Assembly (NCBI GenBank): GCA_051362555.1 | Contig: CM120641.1 | Coordinates: 43,530,401 to 43,594,400 of the forward strand | Direction of reading: 5' to 3' | Source: Lingula anatina | Taxonomy: Eukaryota > Animalia > Brachiopoda | DNA: 64,000 nt | Part shown: one piece after another, positions 163 through 46,257 of the stretch | Layout of the letters: the number at the start of each line of letters is the position of its first letter | How positions within the stretch are numbered: the stretch's first letter is position 1 | Position numbers and translations under genes: made by a program | Notes under the pieces: generated by a model | Databases searched by the model: none | What the model was told of the DNA's origin: nothing | The model's input: the letters and a program-made list of their open reading frames with translations, nothing else

Positions 163-377
163 AAAAAATGGAGGTGCCAAAAGCCATGAAATCAACAATT
201 TTTACAGTGACGACTATTGCCCTGGCGTGTCTGTTTCTGGCTGCGGTCGCAACTGTTATCATCGTACCTCTCCGAATGTTAAAATTGCGCCGTCAACTGA
301 GAAACTCCACTCAGCTGCATCCTGACGCCAGTTTCAACACTCCTGTTCACATTCCAGTCACTATTCTCAGACCTTAA
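163..377 (+). CDS. Terminal (transmembrane + cytoplasmic tail) exon of a divergent upstream paralog of the Sushi-ZP-TM family (copy 0); rest of gene lies left of the window
   Basis: Acceptor tttcag at 157-162 then aa aaa atg, the same phase and context as the last exons at 15449, 31808 and 46070. Translation (E)KMEVPKAMKSTIFTVTTIALACLFLAAVATVIIVPLRML.. aligns with (E)KMTVGPKSRMSTIFTVSTIAVVCLILTAGIIIIIVIPLRK; stop TAA 375-377; AATAAA near 440. Confidence 0.85.
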
Positions 378-1778
378 TAAGATTATACTGCAATTTGTAA
401 TGTAATCCATATATTTGAGTCACAAAAAAGATATATCTAAATAAATAAAGGAATGGCAGGTAAAATATTGAAACACGTTCTTGTTAACATTGACTTTCAC
501 GGGATTAGATCGGGACCAAGGTGATTTTGAGTCGTGATGCACACGAACTATCTATTAAAGTGCTGGCGACATTCTCTCAGTTCGACTGAATGTTAATATT
601 TCTGTGACTGTGACAAGTCACGGTCTGTATAGTGTTGAGTGCACTGCGGCACAACCCCCTCCCCACAAAATAAATAAATAAATGAATAAAAAGGTGTAGA
701 TAGCAAATTTCTAAAACTGCGCACTGCACGTATTTCAAACTAATTTACACCGGTTGTTTGGACCTGAATGAAAATATTAAAAAAACGTGGTCTTTTTGGT
801 ACACGTGCCCACTAACGATGACAGAATAAAGTAAGACCGAAAGTTGGTACACACTTGTTTATAGCACAAAAAATTATTCTATTTTAAAGCAAACATAAGT
901 AGCCCCTATTGAGCCATTGATGTGAAATGATCCGCCTTTGTTTTGAAAATGTACTTTAAGCGAAGAAGTGTTTTGCCCAAGCCGGTGTGACGAAACTGAG
1001 CAGGGTCCGTGTAACAGAGAATCCATTCTCCCTTTCTTTATGGAAGTTGGGGTTAGCCTGACTGAAAAATATAAAAATTTAAATCTAAAGCTTTGCACGA
1101 TTATTAATAAAAAAAAAAAAATGATAATAAAAGCACCGATTCCAAGTCAACTATTCTTCGAATTTCTGCCATAATCTACTTACATTATACATCACCATAT
1201 CTTACGATTAGGAATTTAAAAGAAAAATTAAAGAATTTAAAGTATTTAAACCAGAAAAACACTCAAAGAAAACAAATCTCTAGCAAGGCAGCTCAGTTCT
1301 TCTTTTTCTTCTTCTTCTTAGTAGTAGTAATCCTGGACTAATTAGTTGATAAATCAACTCAATTTTCAATATCATTAATAATTAATTTATCCACTAATTG
1401 ATAAGTTAAACACTGATAATTATCAATCAAATAACTAATTAAAATTAATAAACTAATCTAATGATTAAAACATCTAGCCCATTTCTCTCCAGAAATTTTA
1501 TCAAATTCCCTCCACAGCTTTTTGCATAATGTTGCTAACAGACAAAGAGATTTAATTAATTACCTAAAACTGCAAATCTACTCGTTTGTTACTTGATTTG
1601 CTCTCGATAGTGTGTGAAAAAAACTAGGAAAATCCTTCCACAACTTTTTTCTAAAATGTTGTTAAGAGACAAACGCAGGTAATGAAAGATTACTTAAAAC
1701 TACAATCCAATTTTCTCACCGATCCAATTACGACGACGATCTGAGCTCATGACAATGGCCCCATTCAGAATAGGTGAC

Positions 1779-2385: not shown

Positions 2386-3646
2386 TAAATGTGGTTTGAG
2401 GATTACTGTTGCCAGGAGGCTTCCTGCTCCAAACAGCCTCGTACAATATTTGATCACCAAGTGCAGGTCAAACTTAGTGCCGTTCAGTGTTGTGCAAGTT
2501 TTTGAACGTCGGGGGGAGGGGGGAGCTCTTTTTGGGTCAATTTTGGACCATACTTGAAATAAGGACGCCGTTTTCATCTTATAAGGATGTGGTCGGCTCT
2601 TGGCCACAGGGACGGCACAGGGTCGGCAACATGGCTGCGGCTAATTTTGGTAAAATTCTGGAAGTAACGTCCGATGCCAGAATGGACCAGAAGAACAAAC
2701 TCTGTGTACGGTTTGATTGTCATTGATATCTCAGTCTCTGCTATTCTAAACTAATTTATTTTAAATTTCATTCAGAGCTCAGAGGGACAATAGTTCCTTT
2801 GCAGCTAGATGACTAGACGCTGACTTCTTTTTGAAAAGCTTGCTTTCCAGATTTCTTTTGTTTACTGGAGAACAGGGTAGTCACCTGGCTTCAATAGGCC
2901 TACTGACAAAAAAGTTGTTAAAACGGATGATGGAATTAGAGGAAAAGGCAAAACTTAATAGAAAGATACACAAATTCAGAAAGCACTCAGATTATCTATC
3001 TGAACATGTGAGTGGTTTGCATCATTTCAACAAAATGAATGAGAGACTAAATACCAATTAGAAAGGCACTCAGAGAACACAAACCATTGCCCAGGGCACT
3101 CAATTCTCATTTCTTTTAACTATTTATCAATAAGTTAATCAATTAAGTTATTAATATCTAACTTTTCGTCATAATTGCTAATTTATTATTAGTTATTAGA
3201 ATTTCACATTTTATTCCAGTTTCAAGTACTAAGTGGTCTTCAATGAAACCTTTGAAAGTTATTTTGGTAATGTGAATTTGTTTATTATTACCATCTTAAT
3301 TAAATTTTTGATACCTACCTTCACAAATGAAGTTTACCATCTCCATCTCCATTATAAAATAAAAAATTCAGATCTCAGAAACTACTTTCTAGAAAATAAT
3401 TTTATGAGCAGTTTTGGCAATGAAGTACCTTGGTGATTATGGGTAAATTATTCACAAAAAATTAATTTTATCTGTATAAAGGTAAAGGACTCATAGCATG
3501 ATTTTAAAAAACATATAGATGTTGCTTCATACGTATATTCTAGAACAAAACTGTTCAACTTGATGTCGGTATAACAATTTGGAGTGTGTTGAAGTGCATA
3601 ACTGTGTTTGTCATATATTGATTGTAAAGATTTTTCATTATTTTAG

Positions 3647-6600
3647 TCTCTTCTTTATTTTGCTGTTTTAATCCATGACGCAACGTGTGGTAAGTTTTGG
3701 TCTCTCTCTTTCTCTCTCTCTGTCCATTATGATAATTTAAACTATTATATTTATTTATCTATTTCCAAGGTAGCTAAATCTTAACATACAATGTATGGGA
3801 ACATTTCGAGCATTTGTATATTGAAACGTTAATTTAAAACAACAACAACGCTAAATCAAAGTAAAAACGTAAAAGTTCAAGCTAGTAGCAGGTGAAGAGA
3901 GATCTAATTTAGCACTGCTTTGGTTCCTCTTATGACAAAACTGATGCTGTTGAATTTTTGTTTTATATCTTGCAGCTCGAGCTTGCATAGAGCCCACCTT
4001 AGAACATGGCCGAATCACTAACCCTGCAAACTATTATTTAAATGGATCAACAATACACATAGTGCCTAATGTTGGATACTTCTTGGATGGGGATTCTATT
4101 GCAACTTGCGATGTAGATCATGGTTGGATTAATCTTCCAACAATTAAAGGTACACACATATGCTTCAGTGCTTCTTGTGCATTGTTAACTGACATTATGA
4201 TATTAATTTTATTATGCAAGACGATGTTACCCATGGAAGCACATGTTTTTATAAAAAGCATACTGTATGTATCAGAAAATTTGTCATAGTCATATTTTAT
4301 CATACAAATCCTATATTTGTATATTGAAACATTAATTTAAAACAACAACAATGCTAAATCAAAGTAAAAAAAGTAAAGTCCAAGCTAGTAGCAGGTGAAG
4401 AAAGATCTAATTTAGCACTGCTATGGTTCCTCTTATTTATAACTGATGCTGTTGAATTTTTGTTTTATATCTTGCAGCTGCAGTTTGCCCAGAGCCCATC
4501 TTAGAAAATGGTCAAATCACTAACCCTGCAGATGAGTACATTAATGGCTATACAATACACATAGTTGCTAATGATGGATACTTCTTGGATGGGGAGGCTG
4601 TATCCTTCTTGGATGGGGAGTCTAGAGCAGACAGCACATGTGATGCAGTACATAATCAATGGATTAATCTACCAACAATTAAAGGTACACACATATGCTT
4701 CAGTGCTTCTTGTACATTGTTAACTGACATTATGACATTAATTTTATTATGCAAGATGATGTTACAGGTACCCATGGAAGCACATGTTTTTATAAAAAGT
4801 CTACTGTATATATCTGCAAATTTGGCATAGTTATATTTTTCATACAAATCCTATAAAGCTACTAATCTCTCTCAATTCAGACCTTGAAAACTATAAACCC
4901 CTCAGATAAAAGTACTTGGCATTGGTAGTTCCTTCTGGAATGTACACTAAGACATGACATTCTAAATGCCTGACAAGTCATTTAGAACTTTATCTTTAGT
5001 TAAAATTAAAATGGATTAAACAATAAAGGGAACCGGAGAAGATCAGCATTGGTCAGAATTGTGCCGGAAGTGACGTGCAGTGGTGTTAGAAACGAAGCTG
5101 AGTGATCATTTAACATAGAGGTGAACGGCAGTGAAGACGGGTTGTCGGAGGAAAAAGAAGTTTTCTAAACAACATGGTAAGATAACACTTTTTCTTTACG
5201 CATTTTGGGCAGAGAAAACTTGTAGATATAATAAATGCATGATATGAAAACGTGACACGGAACTTGAAGGTGCAAAATCGTGCTTAATTGGCGGTCAACT
5301 TGTTTAGAAATAAATGCTGCGTCGACCGCCAGCGCGACAAAAAGCGTAAAGGGGAAATAATTCCCGGGAGTCTATAAATCATTGTCATGTGGAAATTTGG
5401 CATTAATATAATCCGATATGTCCATATCTAAGTATTTTTGGGTGTTTTATGGTATGGGCTGCAATTACAACGATGTTTTAGAGGTCTTGAAGGACCTTGT
5501 GAAAACCAGGAAGTAGTTCGTAACTAACAAGCGGAATGTACCGATCTCCGACTGCTGTGCATAGCTGTATCTTTTTTTCAATATATTGACGAATTTTAGA
5601 TCTTTATATGTCCATCTGGCATGAAATTCCACACACATGATCACACTGATATACCTTTTACACTGGGGAAGGCGCTAATCAGTGACAAATGCCAAGACAA
5701 AGGTGACATTCTGACAGCCTCTTATCTGAGTTATAGCTTAAAACAATTTCCTCTATTACCACTGACAAAAGAGACTGGCAATCAATTTCCTCAGGCTGGC
5801 AATCATTAGCCTATAGAAATTGGTCATGTTACATCTTATCTACCTGTGAGAATCGTTTTACCAACTGAGTATTGCATAATAATGTAAATTATTAGTACTT
5901 TGAGCTAGTCTTAATTACCTGTCAGCTCACCTGAATTCTCTTTTTGTCTTTTTGGGAAGATCTTGTCAGTGAAATGTTTTATTTGTCCTGTGACAAAAAT
6001 TCGTCAATATATTGAAAAAAAGATACAGCTGTGCACAGCAGTCGGAGATCGGTACATTTCACTTGTTAGTTACGAACTACTTCCTTGTATTCACAAGGTC
6101 CTTCAAGACCTCTAAAACATCGTTGTAATTGCAGCCCATACCATAAAACACCCCAAAAATACTTAGATATGGACATATCGGATTATATTAATGCCAAATT
6201 TCCACATGGCAACGATTTACAGCCTCCCGGGAATTATTTCCCCTTTACGCTTTTTGTCGCGCTGGCGGTCGACGCAGCATTCATTTTAAAACAAGTTGAC
6301 CGCCAATTAAGCACGATTTTGCACCTTCAAGTTCCGTGTCACGTTTTCATATCATGCATTTATTATTTCTACAAGTTTTCTCTGCCCAAAATGCGTAAAG
6401 AAAAAGTGTTATCTTACCATGTTGTTTAGAAAACTTCTTTTTCCTCCGACAACCCGTCTTCACTGCCGTTCACCTCTATGTTAAAATGACCACTCAGCTT
6501 TGTTTCTAACACCACTGCACGTCACTTCCGGCACAATTCTGAACAATGCTGATCTTCTCCGGTTCCCATTATTGAATTTAACAACATATGAAATTGTGTA

Positions 6601-9600
6601 AAGAAATGATTGGTGAGAAGGAGAAAATTGTTTTTTCCTTGAAGTAAAATTAATTTTAGTGGGCAAATCCAACATATCTGTTGAGTACCTTTAACTTTAA
6701 AAATGTTTAGAATAATTTGGTAAACAACCTAACACAGATACCAAAATCTCAGTTTAAATGATGATGATGAGTTAATTCGTTGTAGTTATAGGCCTCTGGC
6801 CTAAAATACATAACAATCTGTCCAAATACAAAAGACATATACAATCAATGTTTTACATGTACATACAGAAATGAATTATATGACTACACCATACATGTAC
6901 AAGTATTTCATTTACCTATCCAGACAGTTAACGTTGTTATCTACAATATCACTTCTTAATGCAAAGGCGTACAATAATAATCTAGTCAGTGAGAAAAAGC
7001 TCTTTTCGTTCTTGTCAGACATTATACTTGTAAAGAAATGTTTATTTAAATGATGTTATATAATGATTATGTACTTTTCAGTACTACCATGTGACGAACC
7101 CCTGTCATTTGCTAATGGTGAGATAGTAACCCAAGAACCCTATGTTCGTAATCAAACTGTTCTGGCCCAGTGTGCACCTGGCTATGTGGCTGAGAATGGT
7201 CTGCAGAATGTTAATGTCACATGTTATATTAATGGAACCTGGGATCCCATGCCTATCTGTTCAGGTACTGTTGCTGAAAGTGCAAATCTTTGATTTTTAT
7301 AATTTTGGAAGATGAAGTTTGGAAGTCCTTAAGAATGCTGTTGTTTATATTATAAAGATAGGTGTACCAACTTATAATGAACCCCTATCCCTCACGAACC
7401 AACCATCCTATTGCTCTGCTCCATTTTTGACTGCGATATGCAGGTATACACCCGATAACAGGCCTTTGACAGAAGCTACACCATCCTACATGGTACAAAT
7501 GGAACATTCATACTTGTTTCAAAGCCATTACCTGCATGCGTCAATTGTTACCATAACAATGTATACACCTTCCTTTATAAAACTGTGCCATTCACATTAA
7601 AATGAATGTCCACAGTTATTATGGTACTAATTTAAAAACTGGTGGTGCTCTTAATATAACATAAATATAAAACATGTTGTGCACTATTTTTATTTATTTA
7701 TTTATTGGTTGTTGCTCATTTAAGACTGCTTTTATGTTACTACATCTATACCAGTTTAAACACATTTTATATGTCTGTCCTAATGACAGTTTTGCTGCCT
7801 GGTTTCTGTTAAGAAATTTTGACACTGAGGCTTAGTGCTCCCTTCATTTTTTTTTTCAATTTAGGGTATTTCATACAAAAACCTCACTGTTATTTGACAT
7901 CCCTATGTGTTTCTCTTTGTAGCACTACAAGATCTTTCCGGTAGGTATGCAATTCTCAGGTAAAGAGTCTATATTTTAAGGAGTATGTGTGACATCCTTG
8001 TGCCTGTCTGGCTGTCTGTCAGTGCCTGTTTGTCTTTCTGTACTAGCAAAACTATTAAGTTTCACTCATGTTGATATCTTTCATGACTGTAAGGATTAAC
8101 ACCCAGATGGTGCCAGAATTCTATGTTAAAGGAAAGACCTGGGTCGGAACAGTGTCAGTGATTTATACTTTGGTAATTCAGCAAGGTTCAACAATTAAAA
8201 CCATGAATAAAGGTGTGTTTAATAAAGATGAGATATGTACAGGATTTAAAAGAAAGAGTACATATAATTTTTTCATCATAAATGATGTACTTCTTAGGAT
8301 AGAAAAATAAATAATAAATAGAATGTTTGTCTACTTCAGCCACATATCGCTGTGGAGTGAACCCTAACGAAGTAATAATGATAGTAAAAAATAACAATAA
8401 CTACCAGGATGCTTACATACCTGGCTATAAAGATGATGGGAGTTGTCAACCAGATTTTAGTATGATGCCAGGAGGCTGGACACATGTGGCATTTCGACTG
8501 GCAGAAGGAACATGTGGAATGGTGACAACACCAGTAAGTGATGCCTATTTTTCCATACAGGTTTTTTGTCCTCAAAATTTTGGGGGTCCCACTAGCTTTG
8601 ATGACATGAATCCATCAGTGAATACATTCTTTCACCATATCCCTACTTAAATATCTCAATTTATTTCTGGTGTTCTTTATCAAGCTCAAAAATCATACAT
8701 TAGAAAATCTACCTAAAACATAAGGAAAATTAGCAGTTTATATAACTGAAGTGTGAATATCAATTAAACCATAATTTCTCTGTTTAAATATGTGTAAAAA
8801 AACTACTGGTTTTTAAGGCTATGGCAGATGGAAACTACAAAGGATAATACATTTTCAGAATGGTTTAAAAACATGGAATGTTTTAGCCACATACAGCCTT
8901 GTCATAGAACAACACACTGATGTTGAATTCACCACAGATCCAGGGTGCAATTTCACTGCAGAAGAGACAGAATTTGTAGAACTAACATCAGTTCGTGTGC
9001 AGAACATGTATGTACAATTAAATATTCATGTTATAGATAAATTTTGTTTTAAGTGATACTCTTGATTATAAATGAATGTACAGATGTTTGTATATGGGCC
9101 AATATGCCACAGTTGAAATTCAAATTCCAGCAGATTTGTAGTCAGCCTAGGAAAGTAACATATATTTAATATTTTACGTCTGCCTATAGTAATATGTGTC
9201 ACATTTGATAATTTTTCGTATGGTTATATACATTTGGTAGCTTTTGCTACACAGCGCTTACATGTTTTCTTGGCATTGGTTTTGAAGGGACTGTGGTTTT
9301 CAGTATATTTATTCTTTCCATTTGTCATTGCTCCTTGAAAAAATCAGAGGTTTAAAAGTGTAATTTCATTTTTATTTAGGATTTTTGCATGGACAAACTA
9401 CACATCTCTTAATAAATTATTAAAGTTACTCTAATCAAGCTTCCTCCAACAAGAAACATACACTTTGAATTCTTCATGAATAAACCCAAAACATCCATAA
9501 GTATCTTACCCATTAATTTCATCTACTTTCACATTAATTACAACTGAGACCCCCAGATAGACACATTGTACTAGTTAGGTCAGTTCAGCTGTTTGGGAAT

Positions 9601-12600
9601 TCTTGCTAAGTGCAATCATTGGAATCAGCTTAATTGTCTGACATGCTTCCTTGAGCAATTTGGGGGTAATTAAGCCGAGTACACATGGAAGAACTAGTAA
9701 TTACCCCTGAGCTGCTCAAGGAGGCGTGTCATTAAGTAAAGCAGAATGCACTTATTGAGAGCACCCCCCCCCCCCAGGGCTGGACCACCCCAACTAGTAC
9801 CCTATGTCTATCTGAATGCTCCCTGAGACAAGCTGTGGTTTTTGTTTTCAAATACCTTCCTGTATCTTAAATTATATCAGCTCTCGTGGTGGAGATACAA
9901 TTATACAAGGAACGGGACCATCTCTTAGGTAATGATGTTTATTAGTGGTGATTTGCCTCTTCTAATGTTAATGGACACTGTTCTTGAGGTATTGTTGAAA
10001 TTGTTTTATGAGAGTTTGAAAAATGAATAAGTGCATGTGTGTAAAATGTGTGTACCAGAGAATCACATCAGGAGTGTATGATGAGATAAAACCAAAACAG
10101 CAGGGAAAAATGACAATAAAATAGTATTCTCTAGTACGTATTCTGTAATTGGAAATGGCATATGCCCCTGGCATTCTATTTACCTGGTATTTTATCAGTT
10201 TTTTTCCATAACTTTGAAAAATTATTAAATTTTTTATAACAGCACCTTCCAACAAGGAGTTGCTAATATAGGAAGAGAAACTGTAACTATGGTAATGAAA
10301 AAAGCAAGTGGTGGGAGTGACACCAAAAGTTGCTACCTTGGCGAAGAAGTTCTGCTTGCCATGACCCTGACAGAATCAGACAGTAATCAAGCCCTTTCAT
10401 AAAGACATTTTAAAAATAAAGCAATACATACATGTTTTATTTTATCCATTTCTGAATTTTTGTATTGTTTGATCTCAATGAAATCCATCCATAAGGCTAT
10501 TATGAGCTTTGCTTGGTGACCTCAAATACTGAGTTTTTATTTGGAATAAATGCAGTTAAAATATTTAAACTTTTGCATGTTTAAGTTATAATATGCTAAT
10601 AAATCACAAAAATACTGCTCTGCCATAAAGTGAAAGTGTCAAATGATATTATATGAAAATATTGCCTGAAATCTTTTTTTCTTTTTTGCAGCTGCCTGGG
10701 GGATCAAAGTTTATCGGTGTATTGTAAAACCAACAAGAGATTCACCAAATAATGAAACATTTGTTCTTTTGAATGATAAGGGGTAAGTTTATTTTACTGA
10801 ATTTAAATAAATAAAATGAAGGGCAACTTTATAAAACAAGTAAAAGGGTTTTATTCTTTAAGCTTTTAAATATTCAACTTAGTGCAGTTCCATAAAATGT
10901 TTTTTAAAAAGTAATTTCTAATTGTTTAACAGGTATAGTTTCCCATTATTCACATTTCTATAAAAGTTTGTGTCTGAAATATAAACATTGTCTTATAATT
11001 TTCTGCAGGTGTCCTGATGACCGGCAATTCATAAATGCCCCATTTCATGGCCAACTGAGACAAGCACAAACTGTAAAAAGTGGTTCATTCAGGTGTTTCA
11101 AATTTCCAGAAAAAGAAACACTATATTTCAACTGTGAGATTGGGTTTTGCACCTCACAACATAAAAGGTGTTTTCAGGTAAATTCTCACTCTGATGCATT
11201 TATTACATTAAGCATTATTATTATTATTTATTAATCAATTTGGCAATCCATGAAGAATTGGATAAATGTTTCTAATGTTTAGAGGCTGCAATGGCACAGG
11301 TACACCTGTTTTATGATTTTCTTTGTTTACATTGACACAAGTATAATGGAAGAGGAAATAAGGCAAAATACAGCACAGCACAGAGCACTTGTGCCTTGAA
11401 AAAAAAAGAGCATGAGACCTTTGTAATTTAGGACAAGGCAGCAAAGCTGTCAAATGTACAGACAAAAAGCAGGAAATAACTATGCACAAAATAGGCTACT
11501 GTCAATTCTGATGCAAAAGTACATTATGTTAAACTGCAAATTCAACATCAAATTTTAATTATGCTCAACAGGTAATACCAATGTAAGTAAAACGTGTAAC
11601 AAGCATAAGGCTTCAGGCCCATGGGAGTTCAAGTTCACACTTTGAAAATGTATAACTTCCAGAAAAAGAAGCCAATTAGACTACTTTTCCAACCCAGGCT
11701 GCATTTTAGTCCTGCATTTCTTTTTTGAACATTTGGCAATCATAAGCAACATGGTTTTCCCATAATGGTCATCATGGCAGCAGCACCCATAATTGTTTTC
11801 TTCTATTCTGATGCAATATTACATATTGGTTAACAGCATAATGACCGTCAATTTTTAATAATAAAATATACGTATCATGGATTTTCAGAAAATGTGACTA
11901 GCATGGGTCTTCAAGCATGTAGAACTTCAAAGTCACACCTTGAAAATGCCAATATGTGAAATATGCTGAAAAGTGAAAAAACAGCATAACTTCTACAATA
12001 ATGGCCCCATCATGCTGATTTTCGAACTTGACCTGCGTTTTATGAATATTCATCGGCTCTGTAAATATAAAGCCCAAAAGTAAAACTGCCTTCCACTTAT
12101 CGTGTTTACAATGAAAGTGCAAGGCGCCGCTGACGGCGGTGACAGCAAAGACAGACGCAGGTGATGGCAATATGTACAGACACATTTTTGACACATCTGT
12201 ACATATTTACTGTACTGTTTGAGAACAGTAAGTGACATGGTTTTTCTTAAATGGTCATCATGGGAGCAGTGCCCAAAGTAGGTTTTTTTCAAATTTTGAT
12301 GCAATATTACATAAATTGTAACAGCATAATGACCATCAATTTTTAATAATAAAATATTAGTATCATGGATATTCAGAAAATGTGACTAGCAAAGGTCTTC
12401 AGGCCCATGGAACTTCAAAGTCACAACTTGAAAATGCCAAAATGTAAACAAGACAGCACTGTTCTGAAATGTTTTTTTTTTTTTTCATTTTTAACAATTT
12501 TTAACATAAAACAAAATTAACAGCTTACTGCCATTTTTATATGATCAACTAAGAAAATTGATGAGATGGGAAAAATATCAATAGAGCAGTGTTAAATGTC

Positions 12601-15709: not shown

Positions 15710-15751
<42 letters not shown>

Positions 15752-17440: not shown

Positions 17441-17769
17441 CTTACATCCTGGATTATAAAAACTACTCCAACTGTCCACCAGCGTTTACTAGCTCACCAT
17501 CAAACTGGACTTTAGCAACAGTCACGTTGGCAGAAAACTCCTGTGGAACTAACAGTTTCGCGGGTCATATATTGCCAACCCACTTGAAACCTTACCGTCT
17601 AATCCCCGCGAGGAATCCATAATTGTCTTTTAGGGAATTATGCAGCAAGCTTTCAAGTGGTTCGGTCATATTTTATCCGTGATCTGTTAGTCCGCGGATC
17701 AACTTGTTATGAATGCACCTTTACTTTAGCTGCTGCTTGTGGAAGTGATTGTTGAAACTTTATGTAGTA

Positions 17770-31995: not shown

Positions 31996-32070
31996 CAAAA
32001 CTGTTCGCATTAAAGTCCTAGAACTCTCACAATAAATAATGTGAATTAATGGTCTTTGGAGAGAAAATAG

Positions 32071-32103
<33 letters not shown>

Positions 32104-32854: not shown

Positions 32855-33000
32855 TTTGTTTCTTTGATTGGCGGTGTGTATGCCACTGTGACGCCTGACA
32901 CCGAGCTTGGCTTTTCTCTCTCTCATTCAATTCTCCGACACCAGCTCTATCCCTACCGAGTTTTAGAATATAGTAGTGGCATTAGTTTTTTCCATTCCAT
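32855..33000 (-). pseudogene. UBA5: Second decayed UBA5 exon fragment
   Basis: Near-identical to 16605-16750 with the same deletions; aligns to UBA5 exon 48506-48621 and adjacent intron. Confidence 0.88.
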
Positions 33001-35385
33001 TCCATCCCTCTCTCATGCCTGTTCTTAAACTCAACTACCATGAATTATTGTATTTGAATTAAAGCACTGACAGTCTGTGAGTCATGCAAAGAATCTGTTC
33101 GCGCTATCTGATTCCACTCAGGTTCTTCTCTCCACTCCCTAGCCGTACACTTTTCCATATGCCCAAACGAAGTCTGTGAAATGCTGCAATTTACCGAATT
33201 AAGTAAGACGTATTATTCCTGCTTTGATCTCCATATTAAAATTTTACAGCCAAGAACTTTTTAGAAACTAATTTTCTCGACATGAATGGCGGTCAGAGCA
33301 CCTCATCTCTAGTTTCCTATAGAGTGGACAGAAAATGTTTAAATTAATTACATCAATTATTTCTGCCACCTATCGCTGCGGAGTAAATATTCGTAGTAAA
33401 CGACGCTAATAATTACGCAGACACTTAGACCCCATTCCCATAAACACACCTTTGGTCTACGTGGATTGACCCAACTCTGCGGGGTTTCCTGCTAAGTGCA
33501 ATCAGTTTAATTGAATGCCACACCTCTTGCTTTTACCTTGTTCTTATAATCACCAGCTTTTCTGTATTCTTCTTAACGTCAGCAGAGGGAGAGGATAATT
33601 TGTTAAGATGATGAGACTTAGCGAGAGTTCCCGCAGAGTTGAACCGATCCACGTAGGCCGAATTGTCTATGGGAAAGGTCTCTTACATCCTGGATTATAA
33701 AAACGACTCCAACTGTCCACCAGCGTTTACTAGCTCACCATCAAACTGGACTTAAGCAACAGTCACGTTGGCAGAAAACTCCTGTGAACTAACAGATTCG
33801 CGGGTCATATATTGCCAACCCACTTGAAACCTTACCGTCTAATCCCCGCGAGGAATCCATAATTGTCTATTAGGGAATTATGCAGCAAGCTTTCAAGTGG
33901 TTCGGTCATATTTTATCCGTGATCTGTTAGTCCGCGGATCAACTTGTTATGAATGCACCTTTACTTTAGCTGCTGCTTGTGGAAGTGATTGTTGAAACTT
34001 TATGTAGCAATGTTATTTTAAAATTTCGACGGCGTTTATCGTACATCATATTGCTGTGGAAAGATTACGTTGACAAAAGAGCAGAGTATACACAAAGAAC
34101 AGGGGCGCGTTTGCTTGGTTTACAAATGAAGTAGGTAAATCTTTTTTATTATTGTAGCTATATGAGCTATATGAGCACAATTTGAAGGGGGATTTGAAGG
34201 GGGGCGCGAATGCAAACCCGCTGAACGCGGGCGAACGGTGCTAACGAACGAGGGCGAACGGTGCTATTTAATTGGCACGGTTTAGAACTATGATTCAGCT
34301 AGACAAAATTCTAATTTCAGGAGGAGACCGTTGGTGTGGTTTTTTTTAGAAATCGGAGGGGAGGGGGTCAGGACCCCCCTAATCCCCTAAATCCGCCGTT
34401 GATACTACATATTTCCATTTTTTATCAGGCAACTACAAATATTTAGATATAATCTCACAAGATGAATTTGAAAAGGGGGCTTTATACCACAGTCATTCAC
34501 TAATAAGTTGATTAATCAATTTATTAAATCAATTCTCAAAATTATTAATCATTTATTTATCCACTAATTGCTAAATTTTTGATAATTGTTAATTACATAA
34601 CCCATTACAATCAAAATTAAGAAATAAATCGATAGACTTAAACATCTGGCCCATTTCTATCCCGAAATTTCACTAAATTCCCTCCTTAGCTCTTTGCGTA
34701 GTGTTGATTACAGTCGAAGAGATTTAATTACTGCAAATCTACTCGTTTGTTACTTGGTCTCCTCTGGATAGTTTCCGAAAAAATTAGGAAATCAATCCAC
34801 AACTTTTCCAAAGTGTTGCCAAGAGACGAACGGAACCAAACACATGACCTTTTGGGTGAAGGTAATAAAAGATAACTTAAAACTAGGCTACAATCCAATT
34901 TTCTCACAGTGATCGAATACACGGACCCTCAGTTTTTGTTACAACCGTACTCGTGCAGTCTGTTTTTCACAAAACAAATTCAGTTTTTTACAATTTCTAA
35001 ATAAGTAGGGTCTACCTTGAATCATTCACATCGTTTAATATTTGAGAAGGAAATATCGCCATCAGACTCTTTTATTTCAGAGGTCTTATTTGATTTTTAT
35101 GGAGTATGAAATATCAAAAACCAAAATCCTGCATCCGCCACTACATTTTAATATTTCTCTTCCTTTCGGACACTGCCGATGCAACTTTTGCCATGCTGGG
35201 CGCCGGGGCTTCTCGCCTGCGAAAATGTTACATTTAACGCTCACTTACGGTTGTCAACCTGTCCTAGAACATAATGTTTTTCTCTCTTAATAAAAAATGT
35301 TCTAAATCTGTTATGGGACATTATGAAGGACTTCTCAAAAAACAGTTCTCGAACTGTAACATTCATCACAGAACAACATAGGAAC

Positions 35386-35421
<36 letters not shown>

Positions 35422-35472
35422 CCAAATGTTCTAGAATAGATTGAGAACCGTAAGTGAACGTTAAATGAGATA

Positions 35473-35692
35473 AACGGTTTCTTGGAAAATTGTAAACGCC
35501 GTTGTCGCTCTGATTGGTCAGTTTCTTGAGAAGCTATCACTCAGCGCTGTGTATAAATTCACACGCAGCTGCCTTTGCCGCGTTGGGCAAGGAAAGGAGT
35601 GGCTTTAATCAATTTTTGTTGTATTTTGAGGACATAAGATACTCGCAAACAATTCCCATATCAAAAAGGCCAGTAAGGAGCTAGGTAGGTTG
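35473..35692 (+). promoter_or_regulatory. Putative core promoter and non-coding first exon of copy 3
   Basis: TTCTTGGAA 35479-35487, ATTGG, TTCTTGAGAA, TATAAA 35552-35557, donor-like tag/gtaggt. Confidence 0.55.
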
Positions 35693-36812
35693 AATGTGAC
35701 TTGAGGATTACTGTTAGTGTTACCAAGAGGCCTCCTTCACCAAAGCCTCGTACAGTATTTGATCACTAAGTGCAGGTCAGATTTCTTGCCGTTCAAAGTT
35801 GTCTTTTGTCAGTTTTTACGTTAGGAGGGCTCTTTTGGGTCAATTTTGAATCAACCTTGAAATTAGGAAGCCGTTTACATCCCATAAGGATGTAGTTGGC
35901 TGTTGGCCACGGGGAAATCCTGTCGGCAACGGACCTGCCGCTATTTTTGGTAAAATGTGATTGTCGGAAGTGAAGTCTGATGCCGGAATGGACTAGACGA
36001 ACTAACTCTATGTGCGGTTTCATTGCAATTGATATCTCAGTCTGTGGCATTCGAAGCTGACGTTTTTTAAAAATTTCATTCAGAGCTCAGATGGACAATA
36101 GGGCTTTTGCAGCTAGATGACTAGATGCTGACTTCTTTGTTTACTGTAGAGCTTGCTTTCCAGTATTCTTTTTTTTTTTTTTTTTAGCTATTCACCTGGT
36201 TTCAATAGATCTACTGACAAAAAAGTTGTTGAAGCGGATGATGGAATCGGAGGAAAAGGCAAAACTTAATTGAAAGATATTCAGGAAGCACTCAGATAAT
36301 CTATCTGAACAAATTTTAAACACATGGTATGTCTCATTTTATTTCAACAAAATGAATGAGAGAATAAGTACCAATTAGAAAGGCACTCAGAGAGCACAGA
36401 CCTGCCCTGGCCACTCAATATTCATTTATATTAACTGTTTATTAACTAGTTAATCAATAAAGTTAATATCTAACTTTTCATTATAATTATTATTTATCAT
36501 TAGTTATTAAAATTACACATTTCATTCCAGCTTCAAGTACCAAGTGGTCATCAATGAAGCCTTTGGAAATTATTTGGGTAATGTGAATTTGTCTGTATAG
36601 TAGCCATTTTCTTTAATTTTTGATTTTTTCCTTCACAAATGAAGTTCACCAATTTCCATCTCCATATTAAAATGAGAAACTCGGATCACATAAACTGGTT
36701 TATTGATAATATTTTGAGCAGCTTTGGCTATGAAGTACCTTGGTGATTATGGGTAAATTGTTGACATTTCCCCCCAAAAAAATTCATCTATACAGAGGTA
36801 AAAGACTCCTAG

Positions 36813-39800
36813 TAGTCCAGGAATTTGGTGAAAAATTGTGCATTTTTTACCTACAAGCATGAAATATGGCACACTTATGGACAATGAAATTCTAACCATA
36901 TTTGAATATATGGGCATGTCTGAAAATTCCAAAATGGCCGTCAAATCCAAGATGGCCGCCAAAATACCTTTTTAAAATTAAAACTTTAAGTACATAGTCT
37001 TCTAATAACTTAAAATATCATATAAAGGTTAAAATCCTTCAGGTGTAAATCCTTCATGGTATAAATCCTTCAGGTGTATAAAATCCAAAATGGCCGCCAA
37101 AAGTAAAAAAGCAGGCCATTTATTCAAGATACCCATTAGAATGGTGAATTAATCATGCACTTAAAACTACAAGCAAAACGTTTGGCACATTTGTGGAAAA
37201 TGAAATTCTGAGCAAGTTTGGATGTATGGACATGTTCGAAAATTTAAAAATGGCCGCCAAATCCAAGATGGCCTACAAAAATACAGCTTCTACTTAAATC
37301 TTCAAGTATATAGTCTTTAAATGGCTTAAATATCATATAAAGGTTAAAAACACCACAGTATGAATTCAGCATCCATATCTGCTTCTTTAGGTGCATTAAA
37401 TCCAAAATGGCCGCCAATAGTAAAAAGCACTCTACTAATCCAAGATATCCAGCATAGTGGTGAATTCATCAAAAACTACAAGCATGGCATTTGGCACAGT
37501 TGTAAAACGGGATTCCAAGCACTTTTGGATATATGGGCATGACTAAAAATTCCAATATATGGCCCCCAAATCCAATATGGCCGCCACACATACCCGTTTA
37601 AATTAAAACTTCAAGTATATAATCCTATAATAGCTTAAGATAACATTTTATGGTTAAACAAAACTATGGTATGCATGAAGCATCAATATTTGCTTCTTTA
37701 GGTGTATAGAAATCCAAAATGGCCCCCAAAAATTAGAAAACAGACAACTCACAGCAGCAGTATGGTGAATTCATCATGCATTTAAAACTACAAGCATGAA
37801 AATTGGCACAATTGTAGAGAACAGGATGTTAAGCAATTTTTTTATATAGGGACATGTCTGAAAATTCTAATATGGCCACTAAAACCCTTTGAAAGTATAA
37901 ATTCTATGTCATAATCTGACTTATAACAATTTTTAATCTTTTTTCGTTTGAAAACAGAGCTCAGTTTAGATGAATTATCAAAAACCGCTCCTTTAGTTAT
38001 ATTAAGATCCAAATGACCATAAAAAGTGGAACAGGACTCCTTTTGGTCCAGTTGTGACACCACATGCAGCAATTATGTAAATGCCAAGGATATGAAAATG
38101 TCAAGGTATTTTCACAAATAAGTTTTCAAGTGGGTGTTGCACATTTTATGGGCGATCAACCTATTACTTTAGTAAATGGACAATATCTCAACAGAGGATA
38201 ACAGCTAGCTACACCGAAATTTCTACTTATTTGGTTAAATAATTTTCATTCATTAATGTGTGCCTAGCTTTAGTTGTGTTTCCCTCTGCTTTCCTAGAAT
38301 TTGCCTAAAGCTATAGCTTCTACATGTAATCCACTTTCCCCAACAAAATACCAAGAGGCATTGGTCATTTTTAACACCAGAAAGCATCAGTTTACATGCA
38401 TGAGGGGCAATAGGAATATGAAAGTGTGGTAGGGCATATAAGTACATGTAGGCTACTAGTGTGAACCCATATAGGACCAGTCTTCCAGTGCTTCTGACTC
38501 CCCTCACCACAGTTAGCAATTGCACACATAATTACAAACAAATGTGGTAGGAGCTACCTGCAAAAGGTAAGTTTTGTTATCTGGGTAAGTGAATACTCCA
38601 CATGGCTTCATTCTGGATTGTCCCACAGAGTCAATGATGCCGGAAATCTTGATGAATTTTTACCTTTCAAAGTCCATATTGCAGTAATTTCTTTATATGT
38701 ATTAACTTTCTGAAACATTTTAATTCTTTTGTTATCATGTTCAGTTATTTGAAAGTATAAGTTTGTAACTAAACAAGTCGCCAAATGATCAAATGAAAAC
38801 CAAAGTTTGGCGCCTACCAGTACTTCTTTTTAGTGCACGAAGTTTGAAGCCTGCAATGCAACTCTTGGATACAGCACGTATCAACACCTGCCCTCTGTTT
38901 GGGGTATTTCTTTGCTCATAAATTTTCACTAAATTCTCGGTAGCCATTACTGCAAATGTACTAAATCCATTTCTTGAAATTAGAAGCTTTTCTAATTTAC
39001 TTTTGAAGCACAAGATAACATCATAAGATTACCAAGTGCAAATGTGCTCCTGCTTTTAGTACTTTACCAATGCACTACACCAAATTGTTGAGACCTGTAT
39101 GTTTGATTAGCTGTCATTTTTGTTATATTTGTGAGCATTTGATGAAGCGCCATGCACTGAGCTAGCTGAAGAATCATAACCAACAGATAAAATTGGTACA
39201 CATGTATACCCCAAGCTTTTTTTTTATATTTGCCTCTTTGAGGCTAAGTTATTTTTGTGTTTCTTTCACATTTTATGGATTTTGCACGATACTTTTTTTT
39301 CTTAGAAAGGGGGAGTTGCCCATGAATGCCATATAAGTAGATCACTAACTGGGAATTGATCTAAATGAGAATCTAAAGCAAAAAGCCAAACTACTTATTT
39401 TGGTTTAGCAAAAAAAGGACTGTTTTCAGTACATAATAAATGTATCATGCTTGATGCTTTTTTACAAACTCTGTAGAATAGCTCCTGCACAAGTAGGAAT
39501 ATGCTGATTATACAGGTAGTTGCAAAGCCCACGTGCCTTTTCACGATTGATTACAATTCAATACTTGTGGCCCACTGACTTTTGGAGGCCATTTTGGAAT
39601 TTTAAAACCTAAAATGGCAGATACTGATGCTACATACATACTGTGGTATTTTCTAACCATTAGATGATATTTTCATCAAAGACTATACAAATAACTTTCA
39701 CCTTGAAAGGGTATTTTGGGGGCCATATTGAAATTGACTGCCATATTGGAATTTTCAGACATGCCCCTATATCCAATGTTGCTTAGAATCATGTTCTCCA

Positions 39801-40196
39801 GAACTGTGCCAATTTTTATGCTTGTAATTGTAAGTGCTTGATGATTTCACAAAACTACTGCATACTTTGAGTAAGTAGACTGCTTATTTTACTTTTGGAG
39901 GCCATTTTGGAATTCTATACACCTGTAGAAGCAGATATTGATAATTCATTCATAGCATGATATTTTCCAGCTATAAAATAATATTTTAAACCATTATAGG
40001 ACTATATATTAGAGGTTTTCATTGAAAAGAGTATTTGTGGTGGCCATATTGGATTTGGCGGCCATATTGGAATTTCCAGACATGCCCATATATCCAAAAT
40101 TGCTTAGATTTCATTCTCTACCACTGTGCCAAATTTCATGCTTGTAGGTAAAAAATGCACAATTCAGCCTTTTTTCTGCACCAAATTCTTGGACTA
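36813..40196. mobile_element. Academ-like DNA transposon, non-autonomous or decayed (3.4 kb)
   Basis: Termini tagtccaggaatttggtg / caccaaattcttggacta (TAG..CTA ends); 3-bp target duplication TAG (36810-12, 40197-99) against the empty site actcatagcatg at ~22708. Long inverted arms built from ~310-bp units rich in aaaatggccgcc; central 1.6 kb without an intact ORF. Superfamily is inferred from ends and TSD length. Confidence 0.82.
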
Positions 40197-40349
40197 TAGC
40201 ATGATTTTTAAAGCATATAAATGTTGCTTCATGCGTCTAATCTAGAACAAAACTGTTCAACTTGATGTCAGTATAACAATTTGGAGTGTGTCATGAGTGC
40301 ATAACTGTGTTTGTCATATATTGATTGCAAAGATTTTTCATTATTTCAG

Positions 40350-43300
40350 TGTCTACTATATAATTTTTATTTTGCTGTTTTAATCCATGACACAGCATGT
40401 GGTAAGTAACAGTCTGTCTCTCTCTCCCTCTCCATTATTATTGTTTAACCTATTGTATTTGTTTATCTATTTCCAAGACAACAACAATGCTAAATCAAAG
40501 TAAAAAAGTAAACTTTAAAGTAGCAAGTGAAGAAATGTGTAATTTAGCACTACCATGGTTCCTGTTATGAAAAAACTGAATATATTCTTTTATAACTTGC
40601 AGCTGGAATTTGCCCAGAGCCCCGTTTAGAAAATGGCTACATCACTAACCCCCAATCCGTTTACCCTCATGGGACATATATAAACATAAGACCAAATCAA
40701 GGATACTGGTTGGCGGTTGGGAGACTTGCTTCATACTGCAATAATAATGTTTGGACTAGGCTACCAACCTTTACAGGTACCATATATATATGCTATTTGT
40801 CATATAGTCATATTTTTCATACAAATTCTGCAAAGCTACTAACCTTTTCCAATTCAGACCTACAAAACTATAAAACCCCTCCTTCATTTAAATTTTAAAT
40901 GACTGACAAGTATTGTAGAACTTAGTCTGAATTTAAGTACAATAACATATTTAATTGTGGAGAGCAATGATTTGTGAGAAGGACAAAATTGCTTTTTTCC
41001 TGAAGTAAAATTCATTTTAGCAGGTAAATATATATTTGTTGAGTACCTTTATATTAAAAATTGTTGAGAATAAATTCGGTAAACAACCTAACACAGATAC
41101 AAAATTCTTAGTTTAAATGTTATATAATGATTATGTACTTTTCAGTACTGCCATGTGTCACACCCCAGCCATTTGCTAATGGTGGCATAGTAACCCGAGG
41201 ACCCTACGTTCGTAATCAAACTGTACTGGCTCGGTGTGCACCTGGCTATGTGGCTGAGAATGGTCTGCAGAATGTTAATGTCACATGTTATATTAATGGA
41301 ACCTGGGATCCCATGCCTCTCTGTTCAGGTACTGTTGTTGAAAGTGCAAAACTTTGATTTTTATAATTTTGGAAATTGAAATTTGGAAGTCGTTAAGAAT
41401 ACTGTTTTTATATTATAAAGGTAGGTGTACCAGCTTATAATAAACCCCTATCCCTCAGGAATTACCAACCATCCTGTTGCTCTGCTCCATGTTTGACTGC
41501 AATATGCAGGTATGGACCCGATAACAGGCCTTTGACAGAAGCTACACCATCCTACACGGTACAAATGGAACATTCATGCCTGTTTCAAAGCCATTACCTG
41601 CATGTGTCAATTGTTACCATAACTACATATACCCCTTCCTTTATAAAACTCACATTAAAATGAATGTCCACAGTTATTATGGTACTAATTTAAAAACTGG
41701 TGGTGCTCTTAATATAACATAAATATAAAACATGTTGTGCACTATTTTTTATTTTTTTATTTATTGGTTGTTGCTCATTTAAGACTGCTTTTATGTTACT
41801 ACATCTATACCAGTTTAAACACATTTTATATGTCTGTCCTAATGACAGTTTTGCTGCCTGGTTTCTATTAATTAAGAAATTCTGAAACTGAGGCTTAGTG
41901 CTCCCTTCAATTTTTTTTTCAAGTTAGGGTATTTCATACAAAAACCTCACTGTTATTTGACATCCCTATGTGTTTCTCTTTGTAGCACTACAAGATCTTT
42001 CCGGTAGGTACGCAATTCTCAGGTAAAGAGTCTATATTTTAAGGAGTATGTGTGACATCCATGTGCCTGTCTGTCAGTGCATATTTGTCTGTCTGTACTA
42101 GCAAAACTATTAAGTTTTACTCATGTTGATATCTTTCATGACTGTAAGGATTAACACCCAGATGGTGCCAGAATTCTATGTTAAAGGAAAGACCTGGGTC
42201 AGAACAGTGTCAGTGATTTATACTTCGGTAATTCAGCAAGGGTCAACAATCAAAACCATGAATAAAGGTGTGTTTAATAAAGATGAGATATGTTCAGGAT
42301 TTAAAAGAAAGAGTCATATAATTTTTTCATCATAAATGATGTACTTCTTAGGATAGAAAAATAAATAATAAATAGAATGTTTGTCTATTTCAGCCACATA
42401 TCGCTGTGGAGTGAACCCTAACGAAGTAATAATGATAGTAAAAAATAACAATAACTACCAGGATGCTTACATACCTGGCTATAAAGATGATGGGAGTTGC
42501 CAACCAGATTTTAGTATGACGCCAGGAGGCTGGACACATGTTGCATTTCGACTAGCAGAAGGAACATGTGGAATGGTGACAAAACCAGTAAGTGATGCCT
42601 ATTTTTCCATACAGGTTTTTTGTCCTCAAAATTTTGGGGGTCCCACTAGCTTTGATGGCATGAATCCATCAGTGAATACATTCTTTCACCATATCCCTAC
42701 TTTATCTCAATTTATTTCTGGTGTTCTTTATCAAGCTCAAAAATCATACATTAAAAAAATCTAGCACCTAAAACTAAGGAAAATTAACAGTTTATATAAC
42801 TGAAGTGTGAATATCAGTTAAACCATACTTTCTCTGTTTAAATATGTGTAAAAAAATTGCTGGTTTTTAAGGCTATGACAGATGGAAACTACAAAGGGTA
42901 ATACATTTTCAGAATGGTTTAAAAACATGGAGTGTTTTAGCCACATACAGCCTTGTCATAGAGCAACACACTGATGTTGAATTCACCACAGATCCAGGGT
43001 GCAATTTCACTGCAGAAGAGACAGAATTTGTAGAACTAACATCAGTTCGTGTGCAGAACATGTATGTACAATTAAATTTTATTGTTATAGATAAATTTTG
43101 TTTTAATTAAGTGATACTCTTGATTATAAAAGAATGTACAGATGTTTGTATATGGGCCAATATGCCAGTTGAAATTCAAATTCCAGCAGATTTGTAGTCA
43201 GCCTAGGAAAGTAACATATATTTAATATTTTACGTCTGCCTATAGTAATATATGTGTTGCTTTATCACATTTGATAATTTTCTCATGGTTATGTACGTCG

Positions 43301-46257
43301 TACATTTAGTAGCTTTGCTGTAGTTAATTTTTTTGCTAAACAGAGCTTACATGTTTTCTTGGCATTGGTTTCTTGGTACTGAAGGGACTCTGGTTTTCTG
43401 TATATTTATTCTTTCCATTTGTCATTGCTCCTTGAAAAGTTTAAAAGTGCGATTTCATTTTTATTTAGGATTCTTGCATGGACAAACTACACATCTCTTA
43501 ATAAATAATTAAAGTAACTCAAATTAAGCTTCCTTCAACAAGAAACATACACTTTGAATTCTTCATGAATAAACCCAAAACATCCATAAGTATCTTACCC
43601 ATTCATTTCATCTACTTTCACATTAATTACAACTGAGACCCTCAGATAGACACATTGTACTAGTTAGGTCAGTTCAACTGTTTGGGAATTCTTGCTAAGT
43701 GCATTCATTGGAATCAGCCTAATTGTCTGACATGCCTCTTTCAGCAATTTGGGGGTAATTAAGCCAGGAACACATGAAAGTAATTACCCCTGATCAAGCT
43801 GCTCAAGGAGGCGTGTCATTAAGTAAAGCAGAATGCACTTATTGAGAGTCCCCCCCCCCAGGGTTGGACCGCCCCAACTAGTACCCTATGTCTATCTGAA
43901 TGCTCCCTGAGACAAGCTGTGGTTTTTGTTTTCAAGTACTTTCCTGTATCTTAAATTATATCAGCTCTCGTGGTGGAGATAGATTTATACTGGAAACGGG
44001 ACCATCTCTTAGGTAATGATGTTTACTAGTGGTAATTTAGTTGTCTCGTCTAGTATTAATGGACACTGTTCTTGAGGTATTGTTGAAAGTGTTTTATAAG
44101 AGTTTGAAAAATGAATAAGTGCATGTGTGTAAAATGTGTGTACAAGAGTGACATCAAGAGTGCATGATAAGATAAAAGCAAAACAGCAGGGAAAAATAAC
44201 AATGAAATAGTATTCTCTAGTACATGTTCTATAATTGGAAATGGCATGTCCCTGCCATTTGATTTACCTGGCATTTTATCAGTTTTTTCCATAACTTTGA
44301 AAAATTATTAATTTTTTTATAACAGCACCTTCCAACAAGGAGTTGCTAATATAGCAGGAGAAACTGTAACTATGGTAATGAAAAAAGCAAGCGATGGGAA
44401 TGACACCAAAAGTTGCTACCTTGGCGAAGAGGTTCTGCTTGCCATGACCCTGACAGAATCAGACAGTAATCAAGCCCATTCATAAGGCCATTTAAAAAAT
44501 AAAGCAATACATACATTTTTTATTTAACATCCTTTTACAAATTTCTGTATTGTTTGATCTCAATGAAATCCATCCATAAGGCTATTATGAGCTTTCCTTG
44601 GATACCTCAAATACTGAGTTTTTATTTTGAATAAATGCAGTTTAAATATTTAAACCTTTGCATGTTTTATTCTTAATATGCAAATAAATCACAAGAATTA
44701 CCTGCTCTGCTGTAAAGTGAGAGTGCCATTACAAGTGAAAATGAAATTTTGCCTGATGTTTTTTTTGCAGCTGCCTGGGGGATCAAAGTTTATCAGTGTA
44801 TTGTAAAACCAACAAGAGATTCACCAAATAATGAAACATTTGTTCTTTTGAATGATGAAGGGCAAGTTTATTGAATTAAATGAGCGGCAACTTTATGAAA
44901 CTCTACAAGTAAAAATTGTAAAATGGTTTTATTCTTTAAGTTATTTTAATATTGAAAAATATTCAAAATTCTTTAAGTTATTACCGGTAAATATTCAAAT
45001 GTTTTCTTGGAAGTAATTTCAAGTTGTTTAGCAACAGGTAAACAAATATTCCCATTTTTCATATTTCTGTAAAAGTTTGTGGCTGAAATATCAATGTTAT
45101 GTCTAATATTTTTACAGCTGTCCTGATGATGGGCAATTCATAGATGCCCCATTTCACGGCCAGCTGGGCCAAGGAAAAACTATTGAAAGTGGTTCATTCA
45201 AGTGTTTCAAATTTCCAGAAAAAGAAACACTATATTTCAACTGTGAGATTGGATTTTGCACCTCACAACATCAAAGGTGTTATCTGGTAAATTCTTACTT
45301 GAATGCATTTATAACATTAAGCGTTATTATCATCAAATAATTTGGCAATCTGTGGAGAATTGGATATATTAAATACATATGTAAAGACATATTGGCATAG
45401 TCAGATAAAATTACTGAATGATGAAAATAAGATAAATTCTGACTATATGACATTATACCAGTTGTCAAGAGTATAACCATTAATCATTAGCTTTCTGAAA
45501 TGGACAGTTGTAGCCAATGGACAGTTGTAGCCTTGGCTACGAGTTATAGCCAAGGCAAATGGAAAAATTATCACAGAATAATTCACCCAGTTTTGCTCTA
45601 GTTTAAAGACTCAGAAATTTAATTTGTGAAAATGACATTTGCATTGTTTTACATAAGATATTTGAATGTCTGTCCTTAAATCATTATCAAATGCACAATA
45701 TTGAGTTTATATGTAACTTTTTTCAGGGTCCTGACAGCTGTCCATTCCATGAGAAAAGGATTTCTTTAGCTGACAGGAAAAAGAGATGGGTGACCAAGGA
45801 AAACGTGCATTTTGCTATTAGCTTACAAGTTTCTGTCACCAAAAATCCTAGCATAAATGTTTTCAGTAACAATGAAGGTAATAAGAGACTTATGCACACT
45901 ATCAGGTGCCTTGTAATCTAATTTTTCCCAATTCTCAAGTATAAAAATTAAGTTAAATGCGTCTTCTTTGTAACTTTTTAATAAATGAAATGTTACAAAT
46001 CTTTCAGGGACCATATTTTAAAAGACAGATGGTCTTCTGTGAAAATAACTAAAGTATTTTTTATTACAGAAAAAATGACGGTTAGACCAAAATCCAGAAT
46101 GTCAACAATTTTCACAGTGTCAACTATTGCCGTGGTGTGTCTCATTCTAACAGCAGGAATCATTATCATCATCGTCATACCTCTACGAAAGTGTAGAATT
46201 TTGCCAGCCATTAAAAACAGATGTTCCAATACAGCAATCTCAGGGTCATTGCTATAG
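40350..46257 (+). CDS. Sushi(CCP)x2 + ZP-domain type I membrane protein, copy 3 (start codon exon unresolved)
   Basis: Exons 40350-40401, 40603-40776 (2-Cys CCP-like), 41146-41328 (CCP), 41986-42003, 42394-42587, 42913-43061, 43965-44012, 44326-44465, 44771-44861 (followed by GC donor gcaagt), 45118-45286, 45727-45877 (RKKR), 46070-46257 (TM). Same exon lengths as copy 2. Confidence 0.87.

Follow-up and report, generated by a model that had tools for sequence, protein, structure and literature searches.

A 64,000-nucleotide stretch of the genome of the brachiopod Lingula anatina (hereafter the window; GenBank assembly GCA_051362555.1, contig CM120641.1, positions 43,530,401 to 43,594,400 of the forward strand) carries a tandem array of three genes, here named B, C and D. 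They encode proteins with N-terminal Sushi (complement control protein, CCP) modules followed by a ZP module and a transmembrane (TM) anchor. The array is real; its genes were annotated before but are uncharacterized. These three genes constitute the Sushi-ZP family in the window, next to a Sushi-less sister gene, A. The distal Sushi modules are short of one canonical disulfide bond and, judging from comparison of the copies, have likely been subject to diversifying selection. A recognition role of some kind, directed at microbes or at gametes, is on balance probable, and the three-gene array with its defined variable exon provides a testable candidate for a brachiopod recognition molecule.

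Self-comparison of the window revealed three long homologous blocks spaced ~17 kb apart. Genes B (3243–15636), C (22475–31995) and D (36554–46257) are arranged head-to-tail on the + strand. Each is complete and contains no internal stops once spliced by coordinates, in agreement with the claim of a first-pass annotation, made from the DNA letters, that the exon chains are open despite multi-kb insertions private to each copy. Gene B comprises 14 coding exons and encodes 586 residues with three Sushi modules, in the order putative signal peptide, two distal Sushi, proximal Sushi, ZP module, furin site and TM segment. Genes C and D comprise 13 coding exons each and encode 526 residues with two Sushi modules. 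All introns are of the GT-AG type apart from a GC donor in gene D at 44862. The protein of gene B (LOC106165944) differs from RefSeq XP_013399766.1 at a single residue, and that of gene D is identical to XP_013403227.1 (LOC106168630 isoform X1). Residues 1–290 of the gene C protein match XP_013399769.1 (LOC106165946 isoform X2) with no substitution and 41 positions differ beyond residue 290, whereas the last 168 residues match the partial XP_013403226.1 (LOC106168627) with one substitution. First-exon starts at 3563, 22781 and 40265 were rejected; with them C would contain a stop, and the RefSeq proteins and RNA place the starts at 3243, 22475 and 36554. With a ZP-N exon as query, three RefSeq proteins were retrieved, all "uncharacterized" proteins of Lingula anatina, each containing the Sushi and ZP Pfam families.

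The first-pass annotation had counted at least four Sushi-ZP paralogs. Three are complete, whereas the fourth, gene A, enters the window with its last exon only (163–377, + strand; TM segment and tail), which is 98.6% identical over 71 residues to RefSeq LOC106165968, a ZP-only paralog. In that model the signal peptide leads directly into ZP-N, ZP and TM segments, and Pfam returned no Sushi match. Dead ZP-N exons resembling that of gene A, both on the + strand, occur in the B–C spacer (17117–17547, frameshifted and split by a small inverted-repeat element) and in the C–D spacer (33362–33788, with a frameshift, an element and a stop). Their presence in both spacers implies that the duplicated unit contained an A-like ZP-N exon. 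These dead exons, the loss of two cysteines from the distal Sushi modules, two alternatively used exons and the mosaicism of the copies were observed beyond what the first-pass annotation had reported.

Sushi (PF00084) scored above the Pfam cut-off in the full proteins of all three genes. The proximal Sushi exons (B, 7082–7264; C, 23749–23931; D, 41146–41328; all + strand) encode the canonical four cysteines and the tryptophan in each copy, match Pfam with E about 1e-7 and contain two to three N-glycan sequons, three of them in B. By contrast, the four distal modules, encoded on the + strand by B exons 3976–4149 (flanked by phase 1 introns on both sides) and 4478–4684, C exon 23123–23296 and D exon 40603–40776, retain only Cys1 and Cys3. 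Cys2 and Cys4 are lost as a pair, which eliminates one canonical disulfide. Across the 163 proteins examined, with 939 aligned Sushi stretches, this pattern occurs nine times, each time in the Lingula Sushi-ZP family; a Sushi module short of one disulfide is unusual in itself. Three of the four distal modules match Pfam, the exception being the second distal module of B, which contains an 11-codon insertion and has no match when scanned alone. The distal module of D was modeled with a predicted local distance difference test score (pLDDT) of 96.3 and resembles solved CCP modules; superposition on factor H gave a Z score of 9.2 and a root-mean-square deviation (RMSD) of 1.4 Å over 56 aligned residues, with canonical Sushi rows included in the input alignment. 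The model thus suggests that the CCP fold is kept despite the missing disulfide, with those canonical rows guiding the prediction. In the full-length model of D the Sushi region has a pLDDT below 50.

The proteins belong to the ZP-module family by their ZP-C, ZP-N, furin-site, hydrophobic-patch and membrane-anchor features. ZP-C (PF00100) scored 45.7–49.9 bits against a cut-off of 24.6 in the three full proteins, and Pfam VERL_C likewise exceeded its cut-off in all three, whereas Pfam ZP-N matched none of the B, C and D proteins. The ZP-N region contains four cysteines spread over two exons, and residues 145–248 of the D model align with ZP1 ZP-N1 with a middling Z score of 6.8 and RMSD of 3.7 Å over 95 residues. 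The D model is confident across most of the ZP region, for which the top structural matches are uromodulin, ZPD, betaglycan, ZP2 and ZP3. Residues 146–440 align with the uromodulin ZP region; the alignments with betaglycan ZP-C (Z score 10.4, RMSD 4.3 Å, 147 residues) and ZP2 ZP-C (Z score 10.2, RMSD 3.6 Å, 133 residues) encompass a predicted strand, residues 427–436, that is the candidate hydrophobic patch. Each of the four proteins checked contains one R-x-K-R site and one 19-residue TM-like window with a hydropathy of 2.8–3.2. The layout proposed by the first-pass annotation therefore holds for Sushi, ZP-C, furin site and TM segment, as does its expectation of Sushi, ZP and TM hits on the spliced proteins, and for ZP-N it holds by structure; the putative signal peptide is a hydrophobic N-terminus assigned by hydropathy. 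In the ESM Atlas only generic ZP clusters were found, below 0.9, and residues 24–260 gave no usable match.

On the + strand of gene B the Sushi and ZP-N exons are separated by an 18-nucleotide microexon (7923–7940; homologues 24582–24599 and 41986–42003). ZP-N is encoded by 8340–8533 and 8859–9007, and ZP-C by 10243–10382, 10692–10782 and 11009–11177. The linker between ZP-N and ZP-C contains an alternatively used 48-nucleotide exon (9881–9928; homologues 26598–26645 and 43965–44012), and the variable linker length resulting from these 16 codons could alter filament geometry. The furin site and hydrophobic patch are encoded by 15111–15243 and the TM segment by 15449–15636.

The distal Sushi modules are 42–67% identical among the copies, compared with 85–90% for the proximal Sushi and 88–96% for the ZP module, which bears out the hypervariable tip of the first-pass annotation. 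The distal exons differ pairwise by 21–40% and are more diverged than their own flanking introns in the three pairs compared (C/D, B1/B2 and B1/C, where B1 and B2 are the two distal modules of B). In C/D, differences occupy 31 of 127 non-synonymous sites, whereas the counts are 4 of 41 for synonymous sites and 54 of 520 for sites in the flanking introns. The non-synonymous divergence (24%) exceeds that of the introns (10%) with p=1e-4 and that of synonymous sites with p=0.03, and the ratio of non-synonymous to synonymous divergence (dN/dS) is 2.83 (bootstrap P=0.009). Over the 44 indel-free codons of this pair, non-synonymous divergence is 20% against 10% in the introns (p=0.008). The non-synonymous excess over the flanks recurs in B1/B2 (p=0.012) and B1/C (p=0.002). 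The B1/B2 exons are 23% diverged and their adjoining introns 7.1–7.7%, and synonymous sites in this pair are likewise above the introns (24% vs 7%, p=0.004), as would be expected of exons that escaped a homogenization that reached the introns. A codon site test on the four distal modules favored M2a over M1a (twice the log-likelihood difference, 10.5; p=0.005), a value reached in none of 102 null simulations, whereas the proximal Sushi and the ZP module gave no significant signal in this test (p=0.23 and 0.18). Overall dN/dS of the distal modules is 1.06 (model M0), and about 30% of their sites are strongly constrained.

Recombination was assessed by the maximum chi-square method over 291 informative sites of B, C and D. 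The copy that departs from the other two is C over about 7550–8550 and B from about 8800 onwards. The maximum chi-square was 93.6, compared with at most 18.7 in 300 shuffles, and 40.4 versus 18.6 after thinning to 174 sites. Such a mosaic points to sequence exchange between the copies or, alternatively, to haplotypes that were joined during assembly. The first-pass picture of a constant scaffold bearing a variable tip stands in part: distal amino-acid divergence exceeds that of the introns and dN/dS of the ZP module is 0.31–0.56, whereas the constancy of the scaffold seems to stem partly from sequence exchange, and the selection test is not robust.

RNA reads of four of nine listed runs (X1, X4, X7 and X9) were aligned to positions 32000–47000 at 88% likeness, so that a given read may stem from any paralog. 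At this family level the genes are transcribed. In run X1 (12.4 million records) the shared exon chain is spliced on the expected strand, with 70, 49 and 130 reads at three GT-AG joints, whereas the listed gene joints have two reads in X4 and one each in X7 and X9; spliced RNA is thus abundant in only one of the four runs. The 48-nucleotide linker exon is included about half of the time in X1 (19 reads enter and 22 skip), and the microexon is included by 51 reads and skipped by 6. Loose read ends at the signal exon (66 and 67 reads, agreement 0.97–0.99) correspond to the first exon and first distal Sushi of B, the microexon letters are of the gene C type, and loose ends on the 3' side (53 and 111 reads) resemble LOC106165946. 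These unphased short reads suggest that the dominant X1 transcript joins a B-type tip to a C-type microexon and a LOC106165946-like 3' end, a combination that matches no copy in the window. Run X1 also contains 22 reads that join 33786, in the dead spacer exon, to 42957, in a ZP-N exon of D; these are likely gene A transcripts mapped by likeness.

In a tree that retained all 32 ZP regions and was rooted at the midpoint only, the Sushi-bearing proteins grouped together (support 96/96), beside gene A (100/99) and inside a Lingula ZP group (96/94). Four members of this surrounding group scanned by Pfam (three of its five, plus one) contain no Sushi match. Given this nesting among Sushi-less Lingula ZP proteins and the symmetric phase 1 Sushi exons, the simplest reading is that a Lingula ZP-only gene gained the Sushi exons through exon shuffling, after which, as the tree would suggest, the unit was duplicated in tandem. 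The array would then offer a small, self-contained example of a ZP protein that acquired a module by exon shuffling, the sister gene that lacks it lying alongside. Four related Lingula ZP proteins (P0020, P0021, P0158 and P0159) have a long N-terminal region with no Pfam family and basic cleavage-like sites of their own.

The combination of Sushi and ZP was not found elsewhere in a limited protein sample. Word-index protein searches recovered this cluster alone (3 of 6, 4 of 3943 and 1 of 2 candidates). A HMMER search yielded the best 150 of 180 matches, and none of the 54 of these scanned with Pfam contains Sushi and ZP together. Home-made profiles run on all 163 proteins examined detected both domains only in the seven proteins of the cluster, apart from a weak Sushi hit in P0136 (E=0.004) that lacks Pfam support. 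No conserved one-to-one ortholog was found by the word-index searches or among the HMMER matches listed; the first-pass annotation had named such orthology to a characterized structural protein, a missing ZP match or a lack of transcription as grounds for abandoning its proposal, and none of the three was observed. The literature searched, outside of which subscription papers such as Lingula immunity surveys may lie, contains no description of the genes by locus or accession or as a ZP module with complement control protein modules, nor does it name a molecule that serves recognition in brachiopod immunity or fertilization.

The Sushi-ZP proteins are not VERL, EGF-ZP or uromodulin/GP2 proteins, from which their N-terminal modules set them apart. 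Uromodulin (UMOD) and GP2 are held by a glycosylphosphatidylinositol anchor, whereas the Lingula proteins are TM-anchored and exist as tandem paralogs with divergent tips. They resemble uromodulin, their top structural match, and GP2 in having an N-terminal module ahead of a ZP module with a C-terminal anchor. In GP2 and UMOD, whose filaments are described in PMC8930769 as decoys for FimH, the N-terminal branch contains a decoy module; Sushi takes that place in Lingula, where Sushi exons and the microexon completely fill the region between signal peptide and ZP-N and leave no decoy module. The likeness to abalone VERL and VEZP lies in the VERL_C score and in distal modules that evolve fast while the remainder is conserved, as VERL repeats 1–2 are reported to be under positive selection (PMC11673550). 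VERL, however, has 22 ZP-N-like repeats, whereas the Lingula proteins have two to three Sushi modules and no N-terminal repeats of that type. Ascidian HrVC70/VC120 and the lophotrochozoan EGF-ZP proteins LEZ, EGFZP and NeZPL also position small disulfide modules ahead of the ZP module, and HrVC70 is polymorphic (PMC9265791). None of the three Sushi-ZP proteins has an EGF match, Sushi filling that region instead, and the nemertean ZP set has EGF, CUB or VWD, according to PMC11673550. Ten EGF+ZP proteins of Lingula are counted in PMC9290575, whose main text and supplement contain no occurrence of "Sushi" or "CCP".

Ciona vCRL1 and Botryllus fester, like the Lingula proteins, are membrane proteins bearing variable Sushi modules. 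Fester is polymorphic, and neither it nor vCRL1 is known to have a ZP module. DMBT1/gp340, a single gene, displays a variable number of recognition modules at mucosal surfaces, with a ZP module as their scaffold; these are SRCR and CUB modules, in contrast to the Sushi modules and tandem paralogs of Lingula. Ciona vCRL1 is described apart from the polymorphic ZP proteins (PMC9265791).

Our preferred reading, held tentatively and by analogy, is that the Sushi-capped ZP proteins form a shed surface coat in which the distal Sushi binds a changing microbial partner at an exposed epithelium. By established ZP biology (outlined in part in PMC11673550), furin cleavage would free the protein and release the hydrophobic patch, thereby starting ZP polymerization, and the N-terminal modules would project from the filament. 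The conserved, sequon-bearing proximal Sushi could serve as a stalk and the distal Sushi as the contact surface. Conversion or unequal crossing-over may keep the scaffolds alike and reshuffle the tips, with selection keeping the distal exons distinct. Microbial adhesins are the best guess for the changing partner, by analogy with uromodulin and GP2. Several observations weigh against this reading. None of the six distal pairs shows a significant excess of dN over dS when the comparison is confined to the 44 indel-free codons (best p=0.13, C/D), and over whole exons dN/dS is clearly above 1 only in C/D, with four pairs at 0.93–1.10 and B1/B2 at 0.62. The site test loses significance when the 11 codons adjacent to indels are removed (p=0.26) or when only the first 36 codons are used (p=0.12), and recombination, which is present here, can inflate such tests. 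The distal exon of D is almost devoid of reads in all four runs (X1 bin depth below 1, versus 31 in the next bin), and an immune repertoire of three genes would be small. In Ciona, the highly polymorphic Sushi protein vCRL1 had been proposed to act in self/non-self recognition but does not act in self-sterility (PMC9265791), so a polymorphic Sushi protein need not determine self/non-self. We doubt, though would still entertain, the more specific proposal of a variable recognition system particular to brachiopods, in which a polymerizing scaffold kept uniform by conversion would carry an exchangeable Sushi tip that has a single disulfide and is diversified by selection, and recombination inside the array would provide individuals with differing tip–scaffold combinations for recognizing microbes or gametes.

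The same anatomy and divergence data would also suit vitelline-envelope proteins whose distal Sushi binds sperm proteins and is diversified by gamete competition, like the first VERL repeats. The VERL_C matches and the confinement of expression to one RNA run are in line with such an egg coat, as is the expression of nemertean ZP-module genes in oocytes, reported alongside the VERL selection in PMC11673550. However, the variation seen is among paralogs of one genome, with no ortholog found for a between-species comparison, and by analogy we rank the egg coat, an unlikely candidate, below the microbe coat. If the sexes of Lingula are separate, ascidian-type self-sterility is unneeded and fits the Sushi-ZP genes poorly. 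PMC4595640 (Luo 2015) refers to the sexes, in the part covered, only as "mature male gonads". The proteins might instead be structural components of an apical matrix (cuticle, chaetal follicle, pedicle or mucus), with a loosely constrained distal Sushi that looks hypervariable since the rest is homogenized. Both ZP proteins and Sushi proteins occur widely in invertebrate matrices (PMC11291548), and the overall distal dN/dS near 1, the elevated B1/B2 synonymous divergence, the strong mosaicism and a disulfide loss that could reflect relaxed constraint all fit this explanation. Relaxed constraint, though, predicts divergence equal to that of neutral DNA, not higher, whereas in C/D the non-synonymous divergence is roughly double that of synonymous sites and also that of the flanking introns, and the strong constraint on about 30% of distal sites is also at odds with it. 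As for the shell, accession prefixes of the Sushi-ZP proteins were not found in the supplement of one Lingula shell proteome (PMC13425148; figures and picture tables lie outside that search), and no ZP term occurs in the text and supplement of the other (PMC4595640), non-detection not being absence. We regard a structural role as rather doubtful. It is improbable that copy number and mosaic are partly an assembly artefact, arising where alleles from a heterozygous genome were placed one after another. RefSeq does split the array between two contigs, of which one, of 417,721 bases, contains B and the 5' part of C, and the other, of 16,660 bases, contains the 3' end of C together with D; the 3' half of LOC106165946 departs from gene C at the 41 residues noted above; and heterozygosity of Lingula is 1.6% (PMC4595640). 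Yet the 21–40% difference among distal exons is far beyond that heterozygosity, each RefSeq contig joins neighbors (B with a C-type 5' end, the 3' end of C with D), every copy has private insertions, and RNA of another sample appears to show a further tip–scaffold combination.

The private intronic insertions are located at 5021–6574 and about 11268–14980 in gene B, 27518–30613 in gene C and 36813–40195 in gene D. The first is a 1.55-kb element with long terminal inverted repeats that are 96–98% complementary. Smaller inverted-repeat elements occur at 17768–18797, 20520–21701, 17210–17421 and 33451–33662. The insertion in C contains a 146-bp satellite (28350–30418), and that in D contains 316-bp repeats in an inverted arrangement (36851–40164), where many RNA reads of runs X7 and X9 align. 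Downstream of the array a caspase gene lies on the opposite strand, with a caspase domain exon at 57113–57463 (– strand; PF00656, E=1.3e-11). A 532-codon low-complexity open frame at 59801–61396 (+ strand) has no Pfam match; its end resembles the start of an EFA6/PSD-type Sec7 domain.

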